From positions 9,512 through 73,511 of IMG/VR virus record IMGVR_UViG_3300016657_000022: a DNA stretch of 64,000 nt; one strand, 5' to 3'. This stretch comes from a virus (Duplodnaviria > Caudoviricetes). Each line of letters opens with the position of its first letter. The first letter of the stretch is position 1. A program made the position numbers and the translations under genes. Below are positions 2,183 to 19,089 of the stretch, in pieces. The notes beneath the pieces were generated by a model, which had not been told where the DNA came from, ran no database searches, and saw only the letters and a list, made by a program, of their open reading frames with translations.

Positions 2183-2422
2183 TCACACCGTTACGGTGCT
2201 CTCCATTTCGACGACGTGGTACTCGTCCAGCGTCGTCTGGATTTCAGCAGCGAGACGGGCGTTGGTTTCCGCCTTCTCGTCGCCGTCCTTGGTGTTCTTC
2301 GCACGATGTTGCTCGGCGTAGAACAGGAACTGGTAACGGGCCTTCTCAAGCTGACGCTTGAGATCACGGCCCTTCAGAACGATCCGACTGTTGGCAGCCA
2401 GCAGTTCAGTCACTCGATCCAT
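2183..2422 (-). CDS. hypothetical protein
   Basis: 79-aa ORF with AGGAGAAGAG RBS, co-oriented with neighbours. Confidence 0.6.
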   Translation of the reverse strand: MDRVTELLAANSRIVLKGRDLKRQLEKARYQFLFYAEQHRAKNTKDGDEKAETNARLAAEIQTTLDEYHVVEMESTVTV

Positions 2423-2861
2423 TCTCTTCTCCTTCTGGTTCCAATGGAACCTCTTTCATATAGTCCTTTTCGTAACCGCAATTCCCGCAGGTCTTGCTAT
2501 CGAAGAGGCCGGACAGTTCCCACTGCTGGGTGTCCTCATCCCAGCGAGCGGTAGCGTCGCAAGTGATGTCGTCGGAACCGCAGTTGGAGCATACGATCTT
2601 GACCGGGTTGGGCTTGCTGTCCGGCTTGATCTCTTCAGCCGTGATGCGTGCCAATGCACCTGAGGGAAACTTCACATCACGGGTGACGGTCTTGGTGCCG
2701 TTGACCTCATAGAGATCGGCACAGAAGGCCAACAGGAAAGGGCCGGTCACATTCAGGAGACGCTTCACAGTCCGGGGTCGGCCCGGAGCGTAGCGTTCCT
2801 CAACGATCCAGAAATCTCCGGTCTCCCGGTCCATCCTGATGTTCAAATTCTTCGGGTTCAT
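2406..2861 (-). CDS. hypothetical protein with C-terminal Zn-ribbon
   Basis: CSNCGS...CGNCG motif pair; start moved to MNPKN. Confidence 0.6.
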   Translation of the reverse strand: MNPKNLNIRMDRETGDFWIVEERYAPGRPRTVKRLLNVTGPFLLAFCADLYEVNGTKTVTRDVKFPSGALARITAEEIKPDSKPNPVKIVCSNCGSDDITCDATARWDEDTQQWELSGLFDSKTCGNCGYEKDYMKEVPLEPEGEENGSSD

Positions 2862-2913
2862 GGGAGCATCCTTTGAGCCATTTGCCCAGCAGAACACCGA
2901 ACAGAGTGGCTAA

Positions 2914-2957
2914 TAAAAAATAGCCTCCCACGTATAATAAGATCTTCATGGGAGGCT
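2914..2957 (-). terminator. intrinsic terminator
   Basis: AGCCUCCCA...UGGGAGGCU stem followed by AUUUUUUAUU. Confidence 0.65.
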
Positions 2958-3101
2958 CCTTGAATGTGGTGGGTTGCTATCCACGCGACCAACGAGGGTC
3001 ACTGATAGCAGTAAGATCAACAACCTGTGTGGGAACTCAAGTTGTTTACTCACCCTCAGCCACCGGCAGATGGCCACGTCTTAAAACCAAAAAACAAACT
3101 G

Positions 3102-3419
3102 TCAGGTTATGCGTTGCCTTTCAAGTGATCTCTTCACTTTTAGTCCCTTTGCGGTGAGACGATAGTAAGAGAACTCTCGGGCGACAGTTGCCTTCCGGCG
3201 TTGGGTCATCTTCTCGGCAAGGTCGATGTCCTGATAATGCCAATGCAGGAACTCAGCCCCACTATGGGAGAAACGTCCTGCCTTTGACTCCTGCCACTCG
3301 GAAGTGAGCTGGAGCATCGCTCTTCTGGCACCGATGGTAATCCGGCGAGCGATGTAGTCGATGGTGCCTTCTTCATCCCCAACCAGAATTTCGGGGATCA
3401 GGATAGATGTCATGGTCAT
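3102..3419 (-). CDS. hypothetical protein
   Basis: 105-aa ORF; start overlaps the upstream stop. Confidence 0.55.
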   Translation of the reverse strand: MTMTSILIPEILVGDEEGTIDYIARRITIGARRAMLQLTSEWQESKAGRFSHSGAEFLHWHYQDIDLAEKMTQRRKATVAREFSYYRLTAKGLKVKRSLERQRIT

Positions 3420-3814
3420 CGCCGTCGCCTACCATGGCGTTTGGTAGGGTCAAGCGCCAGATAACTGGCATCCCTGCCGTTCTGTTTGACCGGCTTGCGG
3501 TACTCCCTTTCCTCTGGTTCCGGCAACGCCCTAAAGTCGTTGTCGCTTAGCAGATCGAAAAGCTCGGGACCGATTATCGGAGTGATGTCGTCGATGATGA
3601 CCAGATCAGCCTTGAGACCCTGATAGAAGTCGCCTTCGAGGATCTTGTGGATGGTCAAGTGCCCATCCTTCTGTCCCACCAACATAGCGACAGTTCGGGC
3701 TTCCAGCTCGCCGAAATCCATTCCCGAAATTATTGGAATTTCTGGGGAATTTTCCAAAACTGCCATAGGTTCCCGCAGATAAGTTGGGGTAGGATGCCCC
3801 ATCCAACGATCCAT
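3416..3814 (-). CDS. hypothetical protein
   Basis: ORF track 3416..3895; start moved to MDRWM to avoid the lipoprotein ORF. Confidence 0.5.
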   Translation of the reverse strand: MDRWMGHPTPTYLREPMAVLENSPEIPIISGMDFGELEARTVAMLVGQKDGHLTIHKILEGDFYQGLKADLVIIDDITPIIGPELFDLLSDNDFRALPEPEEREYRKPVKQNGRDASYLALDPTKRHGRRRR

Positions 3815-6442: not shown

Positions 6443-6952
6443 TTAGTGCCGGGTCGGGGCATTCAGTTCAGCACGGATCTCGTCGATCTTGGCGATGCCG
6501 ACACCAGCGTTCCGCATCAGGGTGTCCTGATGGACCTGATCGAGACGCTCGAACGGCACGCCGGGGAACAGACCAGCCGCCAGTGCTTCGGCATAGCCCT
6601 GCACGCGGATCTGGTGGATGTGCTCCTGCATGTGCTCGTGGCAGGCGAGGTGATCCTTCACCCCTTGCTCGGCAGCCGCACGGGCTTCGTCACGCTCACG
6701 GGTGAGACGGGCGATCTGCTCCGACGAAAACTCGACGTAGCTGTTGAAGGCGTCTTCGTCGATGACCGAGGCTTCGGGAGCCTCTTCCGGGATCGAGAAG
6801 CTGAAGCTGGCGACGGCCTCTTCAGCATCGGGACCGGCCTGAGCGACGGCAGCAGCGATACCCTGATCGACCACTTCCTGCGGCAGCGGGGCGAGGCCCA
6901 GCTCTTCGGTCAGGAACTTGTTGAGGTCTTCGAGCGAGGTGAACATCTTCAT
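6443..6952 (-). CDS. hypothetical acidic/coiled-coil protein
   Basis: Start moved to MKMFT (RBS GGAGAG); strong GC3 codon bias. Confidence 0.65.
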   Translation of the reverse strand: MKMFTSLEDLNKFLTEELGLAPLPQEVVDQGIAAAVAQAGPDAEEAVASFSFSIPEEAPEASVIDEDAFNSYVEFSSEQIARLTRERDEARAAAEQGVKDHLACHEHMQEHIHQIRVQGYAEALAAGLFPGVPFERLDQVHQDTLMRNAGVGIAKIDEIRAELNAPTRH

Positions 6953-6974
6953 GGGAAAATCTCTCCGACACTGA

Positions 6975-7011
6975 GATGAAAATGGGGGGAGGCGTGTCAG
7001 TCTCCCCCCAT
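6975..7011 (-). terminator. intrinsic terminator after HU gene
   Basis: AUGGGGGGAG...CUCCCCCCAU stem plus UUUC. Confidence 0.65.
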
Positions 7012-7034
7012 CAGCCTTGGTACGACCCGAAGGC

Positions 7035-7304
7035 TTAGAGAACGTCCTTGAGCGTCTTCGACGCCGAGAACTTGACCGCCTTGCTTGCAGCGATGGTGAT
7101 CGCCGCGCCGGTGGCGGGATTGCGGCCCTCACGCTCGGGGCGGTCGTTGACCTTGAACTTGCCGAAGCCGTTGAGGCTGACTTCGTTGCCAGCGGCGAGG
7201 CTGGTCGTCAGGGCCGAGATCACAGCGTCCACGTTTTTCTTGGCATCAGCTTTCGAGGATCCGGTGATACCGGCAACGCTGTCGATCAGATCAGAGGTGT
7301 TCAT
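7035..7304 (-). CDS. hup: HU histone-like DNA-binding protein
   Basis: MNTSDLID...VSLNGFGKFKV..RPEREGRNPATG..ITIAASK.VKF. Confidence 0.95.
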   Translation of the reverse strand: MNTSDLIDSVAGITGSSKADAKKNVDAVISALTTSLAAGNEVSLNGFGKFKVNDRPEREGRNPATGAAITIAASKAVKFSASKTLKDVL

Positions 7305-7331
7305 CTTCGATTGTCCTTTCGGATTGGTTCA

Positions 7332-7353
7332 CAAACAAACCAAGAAAAGAACT
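7332..7353 (-). promoter_or_regulatory. candidate phage middle-promoter motif
   Basis: Plus-strand AACC(C)AAGAAAAGAACT, recurring at ~14259-14275 and (variant) ~22996-23016, each 25-55 nt upstream of a minus-strand unit. Confidence 0.35.
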
Positions 7354-7396
7354 ATCAGATATCTTGGGGGGTCGTAAACCCCCAAAACACGGGTTA

Positions 7397-8035
7397 TTAG
7401 TTCCTGTTACGACAAAATGGACCACAATCTTCGGTCCGGTGACACCCATCTTTAGAGCAGATGGGCTTGCTCGATTGGCGACCGTACATGGTCTCCGCCA
7501 GTGCTTTATTGTCCCTTGGGCTGGACATGCGAGCCTCCTGCGGACCGGCTTCCTGATCCTGATACTTACCCACGTAAAGGGCGTTCTCCTGAATGGTCTC
7601 GAAGATAACCTGACAAATGCCGGAACCAGCAGGAATGATGAGATCATCCATTCCGTGATAGAGCAGCTCGATGGTGAGGAAGCCATGCCAGCCGGGTTCG
7701 ATGTTGGTGGTCATGGAGGCGTCCAGACCCTTACGCGCCCATGTGGACTTGTTCAGCACACGTCCCATGAGGAACGTGGGCATGTTGAACTCCTCCATAC
7801 TGGAACCAAGGGCAAGGATGCCCTGCACATGACGTGCCGGACCATTGACCGGCTCGATCTGCACCATGGGGTGCAACGAGAGATTATGCTTGCCAGTGAA
7901 GTGAATGCTCTCGGCAATGCGGATGTCGTAACCGCACTCGGTCAGTCCGTAGCTGGTCACTGGACCTTGCACCTTCTCGGTGAGCATGTCCTTGATGGGG
8001 GCAGCACGAAGCAGCCCGGTGCGGTTGACGATCAT
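7397..8035 (-). CDS. dcd: dCTP deaminase
   Basis: SYGLTECGYDIR, NKSTWARKG, IEPGWHGFLTIEL, GSGICQVIF, Y.GKYQDQ. Confidence 0.9.
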   Translation of the reverse strand: MIVNRTGLLRAAPIKDMLTEKVQGPVTSYGLTECGYDIRIAESIHFTGKHNLSLHPMVQIEPVNGPARHVQGILALGSSMEEFNMPTFLMGRVLNKSTWARKGLDASMTTNIEPGWHGFLTIELLYHGMDDLIIPAGSGICQVIFETIQENALYVGKYQDQEAGPQEARMSSPRDNKALAETMYGRQSSKPICSKDGCHRTEDCGPFCRNRN

Positions 8036-8220
8036 TTCGAGGATTTCCTCTGCTTGCTGGCGAGCTTGTTGGCCTTCCGACGCTTCTGGACGGCCTTGCT
8101 CTTCTTCGGCTTGGTTCCCTTACGGGACTTGCCGTAGAGCTGGTTGATGAAGCTCAGCGGATCTCCGCTGGGCGAGGATGCAACTGCCTGCATGGCAGCG
8201 AGAACGGCTTCTCCGTACAT
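8032..8220 (-). CDS. small basic hypothetical protein
   Basis: 62-aa Lys-rich ORF with overlapping start/stop. Confidence 0.5.
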   Translation of the reverse strand: MYGEAVLAAMQAVASSPSGDPLSFINQLYGKSRKGTKPKKSKAVQKRRKANKLASKQRKSSK

Positions 8221-8221
8221 A

Positions 8222-9427
8222 TTAGCCTTTCAGGTTGATCCGAGTCCCGAATGGGATCGGGGTTTCCTTGTTGTCGATGGCGACCCAGATGGTCGGCACG
8301 TCAAACGGGAGGGGTTCCATAGGATCACAGTAGAGATCTGAGAAGATCACTGCTGCGGTGGGGCGAAGCTCGATCATCATCTCGCGAACGCACACCAGAC
8401 AGGTGCCACCACGACCGACGACCTTGACCTCCACGAAGTCGTCACCTTCCTTCAGAACGATGATGTTCTGGATTTGGGTGTCGAACTGCACGATGGTCAT
8501 CTTCTTGGGCTTGAGTTCATCCCAGACGTACTTGAGTTCGGAATTGAACCGAACCACCTGTGCGTCAGTGATGCTTCCACTCACGTCCTCGAAGTAGACA
8601 AGGTGATCCAACCTGCCTTCGTCTTCATACCGACTGGGCAGATAGATCATGTCCAGCATACGCCGGTTGGGCCTTGACCATGTGTAATCTTCCTCGATCA
8701 GATCTTGGAAGAAGCGTTGGAACTCCACTTCCCATGGGATCTTCGGCTGAAGGAACTGCTTCAGCACGTACTCGGTCTCACCGGGGATGTCCCCGGCCTG
8801 ACCTGAGAGGCGAGCCTGATGAGCAGCCGATACCACGGATGAGAGCACGTCCTGATTGGTGATCTTCTGCATCCCATCGGGGGAGTCGAGCATGTCGCCC
8901 TCCTCCTCTTCTTCTGGTTCCCCGTCCCACGGGTTGTTGCAGAGCAGCTCATCCAGATCCGATGGCAGCATGGCCATCAGTTTGTCGTAGATGTCCTCTT
9001 CCGAGGCTCGACCGTGATCGTCGAAGCTGTGGTCCATCCATGGGCGGGTGCCCACGAAGGAGTAGCCCTCACGCTGGAGGTCGTTGTTGATGCGGACATC
9101 GCAGGCGAAGTTCCACACCTTGGGATTTCGGCTGCCACACCGGATGATGTGCAGCCGAGCGTTGTGCCATAGCTCGTGGATGAGCACGGTACGCCTGACG
9201 GCGGGATCCAACCGGAGAAACCACTTCGGGTTCCAGTAGAAGGTCACGCCGTCAGTCGCAGCAGTCCGAACGTCCATGCTCCAGACGAACTGAAGATAGG
9301 ACATCAGCGGACCAAAAAACGCTGCACCGGGGTTCATGAACACCTGCGACTTCGTGATGTCCAACAGGCGTGTCATCTCCTGAAGGTTGAAATCGAACTC
9401 AGAAACGGGTTGACGGGTCTTGGACAA
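8222..9427 (-). CDS. metallopeptidase-like/vWA protein (DUF2201-type, N4 gp25-like)
   Basis: TAATDG, HELWH zincin motif, WN.ACD..IN, DVSGSI MIDAS, GRGGT, FSDLY. Confidence 0.85.
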   Translation of the reverse strand: MSKTRQPVSEFDFNLQEMTRLLDITKSQVFMNPGAAFFGPLMSYLQFVWSMDVRTAATDGVTFYWNPKWFLRLDPAVRRTVLIHELWHNARLHIIRCGSRNPKVWNFACDVRINNDLQREGYSFVGTRPWMDHSFDDHGRASEEDIYDKLMAMLPSDLDELLCNNPWDGEPEEEEEGDMLDSPDGMQKITNQDVLSSVVSAAHQARLSGQAGDIPGETEYVLKQFLQPKIPWEVEFQRFFQDLIEEDYTWSRPNRRMLDMIYLPSRYEDEGRLDHLVYFEDVSGSITDAQVVRFNSELKYVWDELKPKKMTIVQFDTQIQNIIVLKEGDDFVEVKVVGRGGTCLVCVREMMIELRPTAAVIFSDLYCDPMEPLPFDVPTIWVAIDNKETPIPFGTRINLKG

Positions 9428-14033: not shown

Positions 14034-14150
14034 TGGCAGCCGTGGATGGACTCGAACCACCGACTATCTGGCCCGTCATCCTTAGTGAAGGCGCCTTCAC
14101 GCACAGGATGCTGCTAGGGTTTCGTGCTCTACCGACTGAGCTACACGGCT
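14034..14150 (-). tRNA. atypical tRNA-like RNA (117 nt): acceptor, D and T arms and CCA intact, anticodon arm replaced by an extended hairpin; no assignable anticodon
   Basis: AGCCGUG/CACGGCU acceptor, U8A9, GCUC-AGUCGGUA-GAGC D arm, GGUGG-UUCGAGU-CCAUC T arm, G73, encoded CCA; 63 nt between D and T arms. Confidence 0.75.
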
Positions 14151-14976: not shown

Positions 14977-15432
14977 TTAAGAGGCTGCTGCCAGCAAGGC
15001 GACCTGCATAAGTGGGCTTTCATCCAGCTTCCCACTCATCACATCATTGATCTTGCCCTTGTCTCCCTGACGGGAGAATACCTCAGCCACGACACGACGG
15101 GCTTCAAGGATCTCAGGCTTTACACCCAGAGCCGGGTATTTCCTGATTGCTTCCTCTTGCCATGTTTTGAGTCTGAGCACCTCTTCTTCCAGCTCAATAA
15201 TACGCTGATTGAGTTTGGTGCCAGCAGACATGCGGAGTTTCTTGGGGACGATGGGCTTACCGTCTCCCGGAAAGTGCTGGCCGCCCTCACGGCGAACCAA
15301 ACCCCGCTTAACAAACACGGATAGGCGGGCAGATGCACTGCCCATATTGATGCCTGTGAGGGTGGCGATTTCTTTGGAAGTGCTGCCCGGCATTGCCCGG
15401 ACAGCTTCCAATATCTGTTCATCATTGGTCAT
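14977..15432 (-). CDS. winged-helix DNA-binding protein
   Basis: TSKEIATLTGINMGSASARLSVFVKRGLVRR. Confidence 0.7.
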   Translation of the reverse strand: MTNDEQILEAVRAMPGSTSKEIATLTGINMGSASARLSVFVKRGLVRREGGQHFPGDGKPIVPKKLRMSAGTKLNQRIIELEEEVLRLKTWQEEAIRKYPALGVKPEILEARRVVAEVFSRQGDKGKINDVMSGKLDESPLMQVALLAAAS

Positions 15433-15442
15433 AGATCGTTCC

Positions 15443-16244
15443 TTATGAAAGGGCGTAGTCCGTGGCCATGATGTCCTGCCAGAGTTCAGGATCCAGCTTA
15501 CCGATTTCCACCTTGCGACCGATGATCTGGGAGATCAGGTCGCTGAGCAGCTCGCTCTTGGCGATCAGCATCAGTTGACGTGCGTACTGGATACGCAGAT
15601 CATTGGCGTAGTTCGGATGGCAACGGAAACAGTCATGCACACTCAGAACCTTGAATGGCTTGTTGGGCAGACTCTCAAGCAGCTCCCAGATGACGGCGGG
15701 ATCGACATGTCCCAGATTATCCGCGTTGAGTACGTCGATGATACGCGCCGACAGATACCCTGTGCGGTTGTAATGGCCCCAGAGAGCCACGACGAGCTTG
15801 TCATTGTCGGTCCCGGTGTTCTGACCGTAGGTTGCTTCACCGTCTGAGAGCAGATCATACAGGGCATTGACCTGTGTGACATTATAGTCACACCGGCGTC
15901 CCATCTCCCGGCAGATCATGCCGTCGATGGAGTGGATGCTGTTCGCACCCAGAGACCTGCCCTCTTCCATCGGCTGGTTCACACGATGGAACACATCGAA
16001 GGGCTGGTTCAGGAAATGCACGGTCTCCTTGATGGAGTCCATGACCTTCACTTTGACGTGGAAGTTGTCGGGTAGCACCCAGTCATGGCTGAGTGCCTCG
16101 TTGTTCCAGAACGTGAGCATGGCCTCGTTGAGTTCCCATGCACCCGGTGCAGCTTCGCCCATGACGCCGTAGAACACGTCGAGCAGGGCACCCTCACCGA
16201 AGATACGCTTGGGCACTGCCTTGCTGGAATACAGGGCCGTCATA
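15443..16244 (-). CDS. RNA polymerase II subunit 2 (N4 gp16-like), exon 2
   Basis: MTALYSS motif B remainder, ANSIHSIDG, motif C VLSVHDCF; spliced to exon 1 gives 408 aa. Confidence 0.9.
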
Positions 16245-17063
16245 CAATTCTTCAACTTGGTTCGTTAATCCAAGCCAGCAGCATTACCTGCATCTCCACA
16301 TTGCTGTGGAGTTGGGACTATATCATACCACACTGAGGTTTATCAGTGGGTCCGGGCGCTTCGATAGCACTTGCTACCTACTCTACTAGATTCAGCTTAT
16401 GCTGCCGTTCGATAGTCTCTGCACCTTCCGATATTCCAAGATAGCCTCACACATCTCATAAAGATGCTCAATGTGAAGCTCGCCTTTGGCACGGTTTACG
16501 CACCAAGCAAGCCATTGAACATTATCCGGTGTGTAGCCTTTTGACGGATCTTTTTGATCCAAGGACAGGCACAGCGGATGCTCCTTTTCGAGATTAAGGG
16601 GAGCACCTGTCAAAGCACATGAACGCTTTTGTTTGATGAACAACTCGTAGAGTTGATCGGCAGTCACCACAGGGGGTTCTTTGCCTAGCTTTTTGCATCT
16701 ACCACGGGCGTCAACCAGTCGTTGGCGTATTGCTGACATCAGCAAACGATCTTCTTCTGGAATTGCCTTGAGCTTGCCTGACCCTCGATAACCGGGACGG
16801 GCTTTACGCCATTCAGCCGCTCGCTGTGCATTGCACTGCTTGCAGTAAGAATGGTGTGTCCTATGGGCATTTTTGAAACTGCTTGAGGACTTAGCTCTGG
16901 TGAATTGGTCAATGTTTTTGACCTCACCACATTGGTTGCATTTCTTGGTTTGCATATACCACCTAACTGGAAGTGATATATGCATATCGGCTTGGCTCAT
17001 GATTGTCCACTAGGGATGTTCCATGAGTTCACCCGGTTTTAAGGCCACCATGCTTATTGGTTA
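16245..17063 (-). mobile_element. group I intron (IA2-like), 819 nt
   Basis: P1 GGCCAU/GUGGCC with U-G at the 5' splice site; P3 CCGGGU/GCCCGG; P4 CUCAUG/CAUGAG; P7 CAGAGACUA...AUAUAGUCC; P9 CUCCACA-GCAA-UGUGGAG; terminal G; exon join restores the frame. Confidence 0.92.
16392..16955 (-). CDS. intron-encoded HNH-like homing endonuclease with N-terminal Zn finger
   Basis: CNQCGE...YCKQC; CALTG...SLDQKDPSKGYTPDNVQWLAWCVNRAKG; 3' end overlaps the intron core. Confidence 0.85.
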   Translation of the reverse strand: MQTKKCNQCGEVKNIDQFTRAKSSSSFKNAHRTHHSYCKQCNAQRAAEWRKARPGYRGSGKLKAIPEEDRLLMSAIRQRLVDARGRCKKLGKEPPVVTADQLYELFIKQKRSCALTGAPLNLEKEHPLCLSLDQKDPSKGYTPDNVQWLAWCVNRAKGELHIEHLYEMCEAILEYRKVQRLSNGSIS

Positions 17064-17488
17064 ATGGCCTCTTTCACCTCGTCACGCTTGATCTTACTCT
17101 CCTCGTTGATGAGAGCCAGCATCATCTGATAGATGACGGTGTAGCCGTCCCGGCGCTGAGCCTCAGCTTCTTCGCCGAAGACATAGGGCACGACGTTGCA
17201 CAGCTCGGCACTCTTCCGGCAGCCGGTGAGAGCAGCCAAGAGCTGCAATCCAGAGCTGGTGGCATCCAGCGAGATCATGTAGCCGCTGGGCGTACCCGAC
17301 ATAGCGTCGATGTAAGCCTTGCAGCCAGCATAGAACATAGCCGGTTCCTTGGCTTTGGGCATCAGCTCGCCCATGCGATCCTCATTCTCGTCGAACCATG
17401 CGATACGCTGGTTCCACGTCAGCTTGTCGTGGCCATACGAGTTGGCGATGTCGATCTTGAGGTACTGAAGTGCGGTGAAGGTTTGCAT
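17064..17488 (-). CDS. RNA polymerase II subunit 2 (N4 gp16-like), exon 1
   Basis: YLKIDIAN..G.DKL, motif A LDATSSGLQLL, ends KRDEVKEAI. Confidence 0.9.
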
Positions 17489-17515: not shown

Positions 17516-17752
17516 TTAGAAATCTTGGTCTTGGTCTTCACACCGTTCATCAATGTGAAGGATCGTGCCTTCCAAGTGAGCACGGTGGTAGATCTTGAAC
17601 TCGTCCTCTCCGAAGAGCTGCTCGCAATCAGCGAACGTCTCGACGGAACGGTCTTCGTTGTAGATCAGGCAGGGATGCCGGAGGTTTCCGGCAATGGGCT
17701 TCTGGATCTTGACGATGAGAGTCTCATCGTCCGTGGTTTGGGTGGTAGCCAT
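17516..17752 (-). CDS. hypothetical protein (78 aa)
   Basis: MATTQTTDDETLIVKIQKP...LIYNEDRS; host-like codon usage. Confidence 0.6.
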   Translation of the reverse strand: MATTQTTDDETLIVKIQKPIAGNLRHPCLIYNEDRSVETFADCEQLFGEDEFKIYHRAHLEGTILHIDERCEDQDQDF

Positions 17753-18224
17753 ACAGCTTTTCCATTTCCTTGCGGGCTGTGCAGGCGAGGTCGAAAGCTC
17801 CTTGCTCGCCATACTTTTTGATGGAGAAAGTCTTGATGACCTGCTTGCCGTTGGTGTCGTGGCAGGTGGCCCGCCACATGGCGACTTTCTGATTGCCCCG
17901 GCGTGTGGTTTCCCAACGCGATACGCCTTGCACACCAGAGGTGTTAGTCGCTCTCTTTTTGCGATTACGTTTTTGGTGTGCTTGGGGAATACACCTCAAA
18001 TTATCGAGGCGATTGTCAGTGCGATTACCGTTGATGTGGTCAATTTCCCAGCCTGCTGGGATAGGTCCATAGATCTGTTCCCAGATCCAACGGTGTAGGT
18101 AATGGACCACATTATCACGGGAGATACGGATATAACCGTTCTCCCCATTGGCGTCTGACGCAGGATAGCACTGGGCAAGATCGTATGCTGATCCTGCCCA
18201 GTATTTTGGCGGTTTACGCGACAT
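17724..18224 (-). mobile_element. free-standing HNH homing endonuclease with AP2-like DNA-binding domain
   Basis: YLHRWIW...EIDHINGNRTDNRLDNLR; NTSGVQGV...W.A...KTFSIKKYGEQGAFDLAC.ARK; AT-rich. Confidence 0.88.
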
Positions 18225-18255: not shown

Positions 18256-19089
18256 TTATATGTCGATAATCTCCTTATCTGCAAGCTCTATAACTGCCTT
18301 ATTCCACGGTGCTCCCTGGTACGTCACGTGGTAGCCCTGACAGTAGATGCGGCCACGCTTGTCGTACTTGTGGGTCAGGTAGAACGAGTCTCCTGCCTCT
18401 TCCAACTTAGCGTGGACATCATGGCAGGTGCGGTCGTACTTCTCGAAGGCACGAACACGCTTCTCGAAGTCCTGACGGCTCTCCCCCTCCTTGGGCTTGT
18501 CAAGGTTACGCCACGAGTTGCGTACCATCGTAGCCGTGTCGGTGTTGATGGTGAGTCGGATGGCATTCTGCCTGTTGATGTGATCGAGACACACATCATC
18601 GCTGTGGTGGTTCTTCTTCAGGATGATCGAACCACGGTTGAGTACGTAGCCCGTGTCCCGGTTGGTCTTCACTTCCCTTGGTTCGATCACCATGGGCAGA
18701 GGGAACTGGAAGCGATCCAGCTCTTCCTGCACGTCGTCGCTGATCGTGATGGCCACGACCAGTCTCTCTTGCACCGGGTGCCAGTGGCAGAGGTCAAGCT
18801 CACACATCTTGATGATGAGTTCGACGACCTCCTGAGCCGTATCGCAGTGGCTCCTGAGCACGCCTACGATGGTCGGCAAGGGAGCACGCTTGTGGAGGGC
18901 CATCTGGACCAGCAGGGCATAGCCGAAGTCCAGCGGAATGCCGTTGCTCTGGAAGATGGCACTGAAGTCGATCTCCTTGCAGCCGGTGAACTCGGCCTTG
19001 ATACGAGGGATGAGCTGGTTCTTTGAGAATAATTGCTCAAGTTCAATTTGCTTTTTCATAAGATCTGCGTCTTGCATCTCGATCTCCAT
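18256..19089 (-). CDS. RNA polymerase II subunit 1 (N4 gp15-like)
   Basis: RFQFPLPMV.EP, NRDTGY, FYLTHKYDKRGRIYCQGYHV.YQG..WNKAVIEL. Confidence 0.9.
   Translation of the reverse strand: MEIEMQDADLMKKQIELEQLFSKNQLIPRIKAEFTGCKEIDFSAIFQSNGIPLDFGYALLVQMALHKRAPLPTIVGVLRSHCDTAQEVVELIIKMCELDLCHWHPVQERLVVAITISDDVQEELDRFQFPLPMVIEPREVKTNRDTGYVLNRGSIILKKNHHSDDVCLDHINRQNAIRLTINTDTATMVRNSWRNLDKPKEGESRQDFEKRVRAFEKYDRTCHDVHAKLEEAGDSFYLTHKYDKRGRIYCQGYHVTYQGAPWNKAVIELADKEIIDI

Follow-up and report, generated by a model that had tools for sequence, protein, structure and literature searches.

Group I introns of the T4 type sit in conserved active-site segments of essential enzymes, and translation of I-TevI is restrained by an RNA hairpin over the ribosome site. 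The introns of T4 td, nrdB and nrdD (sunY) share with other phage introns of subgroup IA2 the hairpins P7.1 and P7.2 and an ORF looped out from a peripheral stem (Michel and Westhof 1990; Edgell, Gibb and Belfort 2010). A polymerase gene is affected in the jumbo phage PhiPA3. A putative group I intron interrupts its RNA polymerase gene at a catalytic motif and encodes the HNH endonuclease gp210, which cleaves the allele without intron in a relative infecting the same cell (Birkholz et al. 2024, PMC11620839). This is the jumbo-phage case that the first-pass annotation of the locus described here had mentioned; its polymerase is a multisubunit, beta-prime-like virion enzyme, while ours is T7-like.

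The closest precedent comes from N4-like phages. Babenko et al. (2019, bioRxiv 10.1101/542787) described an insert of approximately 800 bp with a homing-nuclease ORF in gene 16 of the G7C-like coliphages N4G2 and Sz33, which is absent from sister phages. Splicing in vivo was shown at the bench by RT-PCR and the sequenced junction, and full-length protein by a mass-spectrometry peptide across the Ala-Val-Met-Thr junction of the recombinant full-size gene-16 product. The insert had no Rfam match, and its structure was a single-sequence fold only. In the same study, an insert of this kind in gene 39 of phage 10Gb, which codes for the DNA polymerase, was found to be unspliced and to give two polypeptides. 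Earlier, the interruption of RNAP2 in the Achromobacter phages JWAlpha and JWDelta had been noticed, and it was asked whether the gene is still functional (Wittmann et al. 2014, PMC3915230). For Pseudomonas phage ZC08, the insertion of a homing endonuclease into RNAP2 has also been reported (Amgarten et al. 2017, PMC5418858). Our search, which covered literature outside subscription journals, yielded no further paper naming the RNAP2 insert an intron. An intron at the motif-B site of RNAP2 is thus not new, since splicing at the same site was published in 2019 and unrecognised copies are present in deposited phages; the first-pass annotation, which was not aware of any intron in an N4 RNAP II, had asked for a check of the literature, and the coliphage precedent is its outcome.

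A split RNAP2 gene in a freshwater phage

The stretch of DNA analysed here (the window) comprises 64,000 nt and corresponds to bases 9512-73511 of the 73.5-kb IMG/VR virus record IMGVR_UViG_3300016657_000022, which stems from a freshwater metagenome assembly and is rated 100% complete. One source contig spans the whole stretch with zero differences and even depth. All features of the window described below are located on its minus strand (-).

The gene for RNAP2 (N4 gp16-like) is present in two parts, exon 1 (17064..17488) and exon 2 (15443..16244), separated by a group I intron of 819 nt belonging to subgroup IA (16245..17063). Exon 1 encodes motif A as well as the Arg and Lys of motif B and matches Pfam RNA_pol (PF00940, E = 3e-12). 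Exon 2 opens with the last base of an Ile codon, followed by Met-Thr-x-x-Tyr of motif B. Upstream of RNAP2 is the gene for RNAP1 (18256..19089), which resembles N4 gp15 and forms the small subunit of this polymerase (phrog_2166 'N4-like RNA polymerase', E = 1.4e-102). At the level of open reading frames, the first part of RNAP2 appears as a 144-aa ORF (17488-17054) with the Pfam RNA_pol match, whose stop lies three codons beyond 17064, so that unspliced RNA would be read only three codons into the intron. The second part appears as a 270-aa ORF (16255-15443), which corresponds to the C-terminal two thirds of 'RNAP2' matched by tblastn in 469 phage records; nearly all of these matches start at residue 5, the Met of motif B.

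Joining of the two exons (425 + 802 = 1227 nt) results in an open frame of 408 aa plus stop. The product aligns with zero gaps over the junction to the intact RNAP2 (401-402 aa) of Rhizobium phage RHph_X3_15, Pseudomonas phage Arace01 and Sinorhizobium phage ort11, in line with the 408-aa ligated subunit and the insertion in motif B that the first-pass annotation had proposed. Its coordinates and arithmetic also proved exact: U17064 ends exon 1, G16245 ends the insert and 16244 opens exon 2. The junction restores Arg-x3-Lys-x3-Met-Thr-x2-Tyr, which is motif B (the O-helix) of T7-type polymerases. With motifs A and B, a length of approximately 400 aa and the adjoining gp15-like small-subunit gene, the joined product is the large subunit of an N4-type RNAP II. 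It is 55-61% identical to RNAP2 of Schitoviridae isolates, and megablast revealed no near relative of the whole split gene among 50,697 phage records. Compared to its three closest intact homologues, the window RNAP2 has a 7-residue insertion between motifs A and B (approximately 17165-17185).

Several other features were found in the neighbourhood. A second, unrelated homing-type nuclease is encoded at 17724-18224 in the same operon; endonucleases at the corresponding position are known from G7C and EE36P1 (Amgarten et al. 2017, PMC5418858). Directly downstream of RNAP2 is a gene for a MarR/winged-helix DNA-binding protein (14977-15432; Pfam MarR_2, E = 9.3e-7). Further downstream, at 14034-14150, there is a tRNA-shaped gene ending in CCA, in which approximately 59 nt replace the anticodon arm; it scores 42.9 bits with the Rfam tRNA model, and ARAGORN detected no tRNA in the window.

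Structure and covariation of the ribozyme core

The helix coordinates were read by hand off the numbered sequence. P1 (17043..17069) is formed by the exon bases 17069-17064 and the internal guide 17048-17043; the cleavage site is marked by the wobble pair U17064-G17048. The 5' strand of P3 (17030..17036) forms 7 bp with 16358-16352; six variants of this helix exist in nine homologues, and all are fully paired (100% of cells). The next part (16997..17026) contains P4, in which 17026-21 pair with 17002-16997 around the P5 hairpin 17016-17006. It is followed by the 5' strands of P6 and P6a (16984..16996), which pair with strands located about 550 nt downstream, on the far side of the ORF (520-580 nt across homologues): P6 consists of 16996-94 and 16425-23, P6a of 16990-84 and 16434-28. 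Double-sided changes were found in all five counted P6a pairs and in two of the three P6 pairs. The 5' strand of P7 (16413..16417) pairs with 16320-16316, in a pseudoknot with P3, and is invariant in all homologues. Between P7 and P3' are the hairpins P7.1 (16404-16393) and P7.2 (16378-16363), together covering 16363..16404, which are kept with differing sequences in all nine homologues. The 3' elements (16256..16351) are P8 (16351-16327), J8/7, the P7 3' strand (16320-16316), P9 (16311-16294) with a GNRA loop, and finally P9.1 (16291-16278) and P9.2 (16274-16256), both of which are paired in the helix table. P10 is weak, with about three pairs by eye, and the window copy has no P2.

All structural elements named in the first-pass annotation are therefore present: P1 with the U-G pair, P3, P4, P7, P7.1, P7.2, P8, P9 with its GNRA loop, and the terminal G. 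The location of P7.1 and P7.2 between P7 and P3' is the hallmark of subgroup IA, and because of this arrangement we placed the intron in this subgroup (IA2-like). Like the T4 introns, it combines an IA architecture with a looped-out ORF, an active-site insertion and a hairpin over the endonuclease ribosome site; it differs from them in its host gene, in encoding a PacI-like enzyme of the HNH superfamily and not a GIY-YIG enzyme, and in the lack of P2 in the window clade.

The comparison with homologous introns (seven to nine sequences across the structure checks) strongly supports this fold. P3, P4, P6 and P7 are perfectly paired in 9/9 sequences, which are 47-75% identical to the window core, and for P1, P5, P6a, P7.1, P7.2, P8, P9, P9.1 and P9.2 a stem is found at the same place in 9/9 sequences. 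The six pairs of P1 change in step with the exon codon. The inserts of all same-site copies come after a U, end in G and share one codon phase, the terminal G being present in 7/7 same-site homologues. In a whole-intron MAFFT alignment (A1), 91.1% of the cells are in standard pairs, compared to 31-40% when the partners are slid by 1-3 columns, and the covariation score is 0.433 versus 0.07-0.10 for slid partners. Both sides have changed in 32 of 59 pairs, a number reached by none of 500 shuffles. Most of the unpaired cells in A1 arise from the alignment itself, in which MAFFT misplaced the 5' half of one copy (L015, see below) and misaligned several Vibrio hairpins; the per-helix table is free of this problem. 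Since P7 never varies, covariation speaks neither for nor against this helix. RNAalifold, applied to ORF-deleted cores, cannot draw the P3/P7 pseudoknot and placed a false stem where P7 belongs; P7 was therefore entered by hand.

A group I covariance model had been proposed in the first-pass annotation as a check of this core, and here the outcome was divided. Against Rfam RF00028 the window copy scored 22.7 bits (E = 0.003 on 1.3 kb), which is below the gathering score of 50, and a scan of the window at gathering thresholds returned the tRNA-like gene only and missed the intron. Nevertheless, the sub-threshold alignment puts P1, P3, P4, J8/7-P7 and P9 at the places given in the first-pass annotation, with P7 as the best-matching stretch. 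The ORF-less copy L015 from the same site scored 49.8 bits (E = 6.5e-10), and the ORF-less relatives L012, L016 and L020 scored 74.6-82.3 bits. Because ORF-less homologues reach or touch the threshold, these data suggest that the 549-nt ORF insert in P6a lowers the score of the window copy. The scores of these homologues tie the intron family to RF00028. No further RF00028 site was found in the whole 73.5-kb record, and when the window was searched for another J8/7-P7 core motif, the matches were at chance level only.

The intron-encoded endonuclease

The intron contains an ORF (16392..16955) for a predicted endonuclease of 187 aa, which begins with a zinc module of four Cys and has a nuclease of the beta-beta-alpha-metal type (HNH superfamily) in its C-terminal part. 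The ATG at 16955, and not that at 17000, is most likely its start, because homologues are typically 182-190 aa long and begin at the corresponding position. A Shine-Dalgarno-like site precedes this ATG, and both are located within a hairpin of 14 bp (16952..16983; -17.2 kcal/mol, z = -4.5), with none of 200 shuffles being as stable. An equivalent hairpin of differing sequence is visible in homologues. At its 3' end (16392) the ORF runs into P7.1, and its last ten codons double as P6', J6/7, P7 and P7.1; four residues encoded there are invariant in 42 homologues. The proposal that the ORF sits in P6 and runs into the core thus stands for its 3' part, while the location is refined to the loop of P6a with the start at 16955. 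From the hairpin-locked start and the ten codons shared with the core it follows that endonuclease translation and ribozyme folding would compete.

Homologues of the endonuclease form at least 127 clusters, mostly of 182-190 aa, and by comparison the window ORF is open and full-length. In PHROGs it matches phrog_1035 'endonuclease VII' (E = 1.4e-35) and an 'HNH endonuclease' family (E = 1e-7); there was no Pfam match even at E = 10. At the sequence level, a search of the PDB gave a weak match to PacI (E = 0.07). An AlphaFold2 model built from 42 sequences (mean pLDDT 84.5) contains two strands and a helix over residues 129-159. Its best fold match is the HNH restriction enzyme PacI (E = 3.9e-3), followed by the Gme HNH nickase, Cas9 HNH domains, McrA, Hpy99I and T4 endonuclease VII; the scores of all these matches are weak. 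The name 'HNH ORF' used in the first-pass annotation would accordingly hold at the superfamily level only, on the strength of the PHROG endonuclease VII match and the modelled PacI-like fold.

Homologous introns and intron-less alleles

Searches with the intron DNA and its ORF located the same arrangement of polymerase fragment, endonuclease and polymerase fragment at the same site in the Achromobacter phages JWAlpha and JWDelta, the Burkholderia phages vB_BpP_HN02/04/05 and the Vibrio phages phi 1, pVco-5 and pVco-7. These copies have an endonuclease with 42-65% identity, a homologous core, and an identical site and phase. They have been in GenBank records since 2014 without being recognised as introns: as the first-pass annotation had anticipated for such a locus, RNAP2 is filed as two polymerase fragments, together with an 'endonuclease' or 'hypothetical protein'. 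The Vibrio copies differ from the window clade, which has no P2, in that their P1 is short and accompanied by a P2 hairpin and their P7.1 is of another kind. An exact-pattern scan of IMG/VR revealed three more uncultured copies (L015, L018 and L019) and ribozyme relatives in other genes. The N4G2/Sz33 intron, going by its published description, is alike in that it resides in the RNAP II large-subunit gene with its junction just before Met-Thr of motif B; its hosts are horse-gut coliphages, whereas ours is an uncultured freshwater phage with an RNAP2 55-61% identical to that of any isolate. No coliphage match was found in the phage collection with the endonuclease protein or the JWAlpha intron as query, the N4G2 and Sz33 genomes not being among its records.

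The copy in L015 is only 325 nt long. It is located at the same site and has lost the ORF except for its ends, while every helix is retained. This is what would be expected if splicing was still needed after decay of the endonuclease.

Members of the family were also found at other sites, IMG/VR loci providing the genomic surroundings of metagenomic endonuclease homologues. A second site in motif B lies 8 nt further downstream, where the codon next to Met-Thr is split behind its first base, and is occupied in Acinetobacter phage XC38 (L009, L027) and in the uncultured L025 (approximately 2380-3200). The endonuclease of these copies is 47-48% identical to that of the window, and their P1 is re-matched. 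Further, introns of the same family are present right before Met-Thr of motif B in the undivided T7-type polymerases of phiKMV-like Autographiviridae (L030, L031 and L102 [Pectobacterium phage PPWS1], and L033, in which the copy appears 1 nt further upstream). They resemble the window intron in their endonuclease (33-43% identity), in the core signature of P7, P3' and P8, and in having P1 re-matched to the local exon, but their host gene, from another phage family, codes for a T7-type polymerase in one piece, and their P7.1 is reduced. In RefSeq, PPWS1 is annotated with a 596-aa polymerase piece, an endonuclease and a 201-aa piece, and in the open literature we found no paper calling an interruption of this type an intron. 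Finally, ORF-less ribozyme relatives split motif A of another T7-type polymerase (L012, approximately 2150-2460; L020, 2456-2757).

Additional RF00028 matches were observed in two of these sequences. L020 has a second one at 3300-3544 (74.8 bits), apparently further along the same gene. In L016 there are three within 2.7 kb (6525-9202; 79.4, 98 and 34.2 bits), which adjoin a LAGLIDADG-type ORF and the apparent start of a ribonucleotide reductase gene.

Intron-less counterparts of the window locus are present in two wastewater contigs, one of 8991 nt from run X2 and one of 1300 nt from run X4, which are approximately 96% identical in the exons and lack exactly 819 nt. They join 16243 to 17082 via 19 other letters and read Lys-Arg-Asp-Gly-Val-Lys-Glu-Ala-Ile-Met-Thr-Ala, straight through motif B. 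The libraries are labelled RNA-Seq but were judged to be probably DNA, and we read this form as an intron-less allele and not as proof of splicing. Seven of the 19 bases at the exon-1 end of this allele differ from the window, compared to about 3-7% elsewhere. This cluster of substitutions would fit co-conversion or the avoidance of cleavage.

Discussion

The covariation-backed core and the homologous copies at the same site bear out the interpretation of the first-pass annotation as a group I intron with an endonuclease ORF. In our view there is little doubt that the element is an intact group I intron of subgroup IA, mobile and self-splicing, that it encodes a homing endonuclease of the HNH superfamily, and that it splits motif B of RNAP2. 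According to this interpretation, the early pre-mRNA would fold in such a way that the last six exon-1 bases and the internal guide form P1, in which the U-G wobble marks the cleavage site. A free guanosine held by P7 would attack after U17064, and the terminal G16245 would subsequently take the same site, leading to ligation of the exons. The ligated mRNA would encode the in-frame 408-aa subunit with a whole motif B (O-helix). At the DNA level, the endonuclease would cleave intron-less alleles in relatives infecting the same cell, close to where the intron inserts, and repair would copy the intron in (homing). For the window copy we infer catalysis, the activity and specificity of the endonuclease, and a middle transcription that waits on splicing.

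Could the phage manage without splicing? The insert might be mobile but non-splicing, with the polymerase working as three polypeptides, namely RNAP1, an N-terminal piece and a C-terminal piece, comparable to the split DNA polymerase of coliphage 10Gb and the split nrdA of phage Aeh1. Indeed, exon 2 contains an ATG one base past the junction, which is the Met of motif B, and the gene-39 insert of 10Gb is exactly such a non-splicing outcome (bioRxiv 10.1101/542787), which keeps the idea alive in principle. However, no Shine-Dalgarno-like site was seen by eye before this ATG, and the break would fall in the middle of the O-helix, between Lys and Tyr. Moreover, compensatory changes have kept the ribozyme core complete, and L015 retained this core despite loss of the endonuclease ORF, and the intron at the same site in coliphages does splice (bioRxiv 10.1101/542787). 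We therefore consider a polymerase in pieces highly improbable. Just as improbable, or slightly more so, is the idea that the intron has decayed and the genome is defective or misassembled, in which case the structure would be a relic and the phage would have no working RNAP2. The origin of the record as an uncultured metagenomic contig and the Rfam score under the threshold could be taken in this sense, but every helix is intact in the window copy and the endonuclease ORF is open and full-length when compared to at least 127 homologue clusters. Furthermore, the completeness rating of 100% and the single source contig covering the whole stretch, with zero differences and even depth, argue against a defective or misassembled genome. 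An intact, self-splicing intron remains by far the best explanation.

With splicing at this site already published, what is added here is the covariation-backed structure, the ORF-less derivative, the second site 8 nt downstream, and the presence of the same family at motif B of phiKMV-like single-subunit polymerases. The exact junction and the presence/absence polymorphism are likewise demonstrated computationally. It is tempting to go further and to speculate that one intron and endonuclease lineage moves between two phage families via the near-identical motif-B DNA of N4-type RNAP II and phiKMV-type polymerases, and hops from there to the site 8 nt away and, without ORF, to motif A, with the endonuclease serving as an interference weapon against intron-less relatives in co-infection. 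Taken as a whole, this scenario is doubtful, and we offer it tentatively. If it applied, such an interference conflict could have left its footprint in the last 19 bases of exon 1, where the intron-less allele carries the seven substitutions. The start of middle transcription could also be timed by the hairpin that gates the endonuclease, together with the requirement for splicing.

The analysis reveals no new mechanism, but it is of use in several respects. It corrects a recurrent annotation error in N4-like and phiKMV-like phages, in which a polymerase gene that works is entered as a pair of fragments and an unconnected endonuclease, and it answers the question posed in 2014 on the functionality of RNAP2 in JWAlpha and JWDelta. 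Further, it provides a covariation-backed structure for an intron family that is missed by Rfam when the ORF is present. Last but not least, the active-site motifs of phage T7-type RNA polymerases emerge as recurrent homing sites across phage families.
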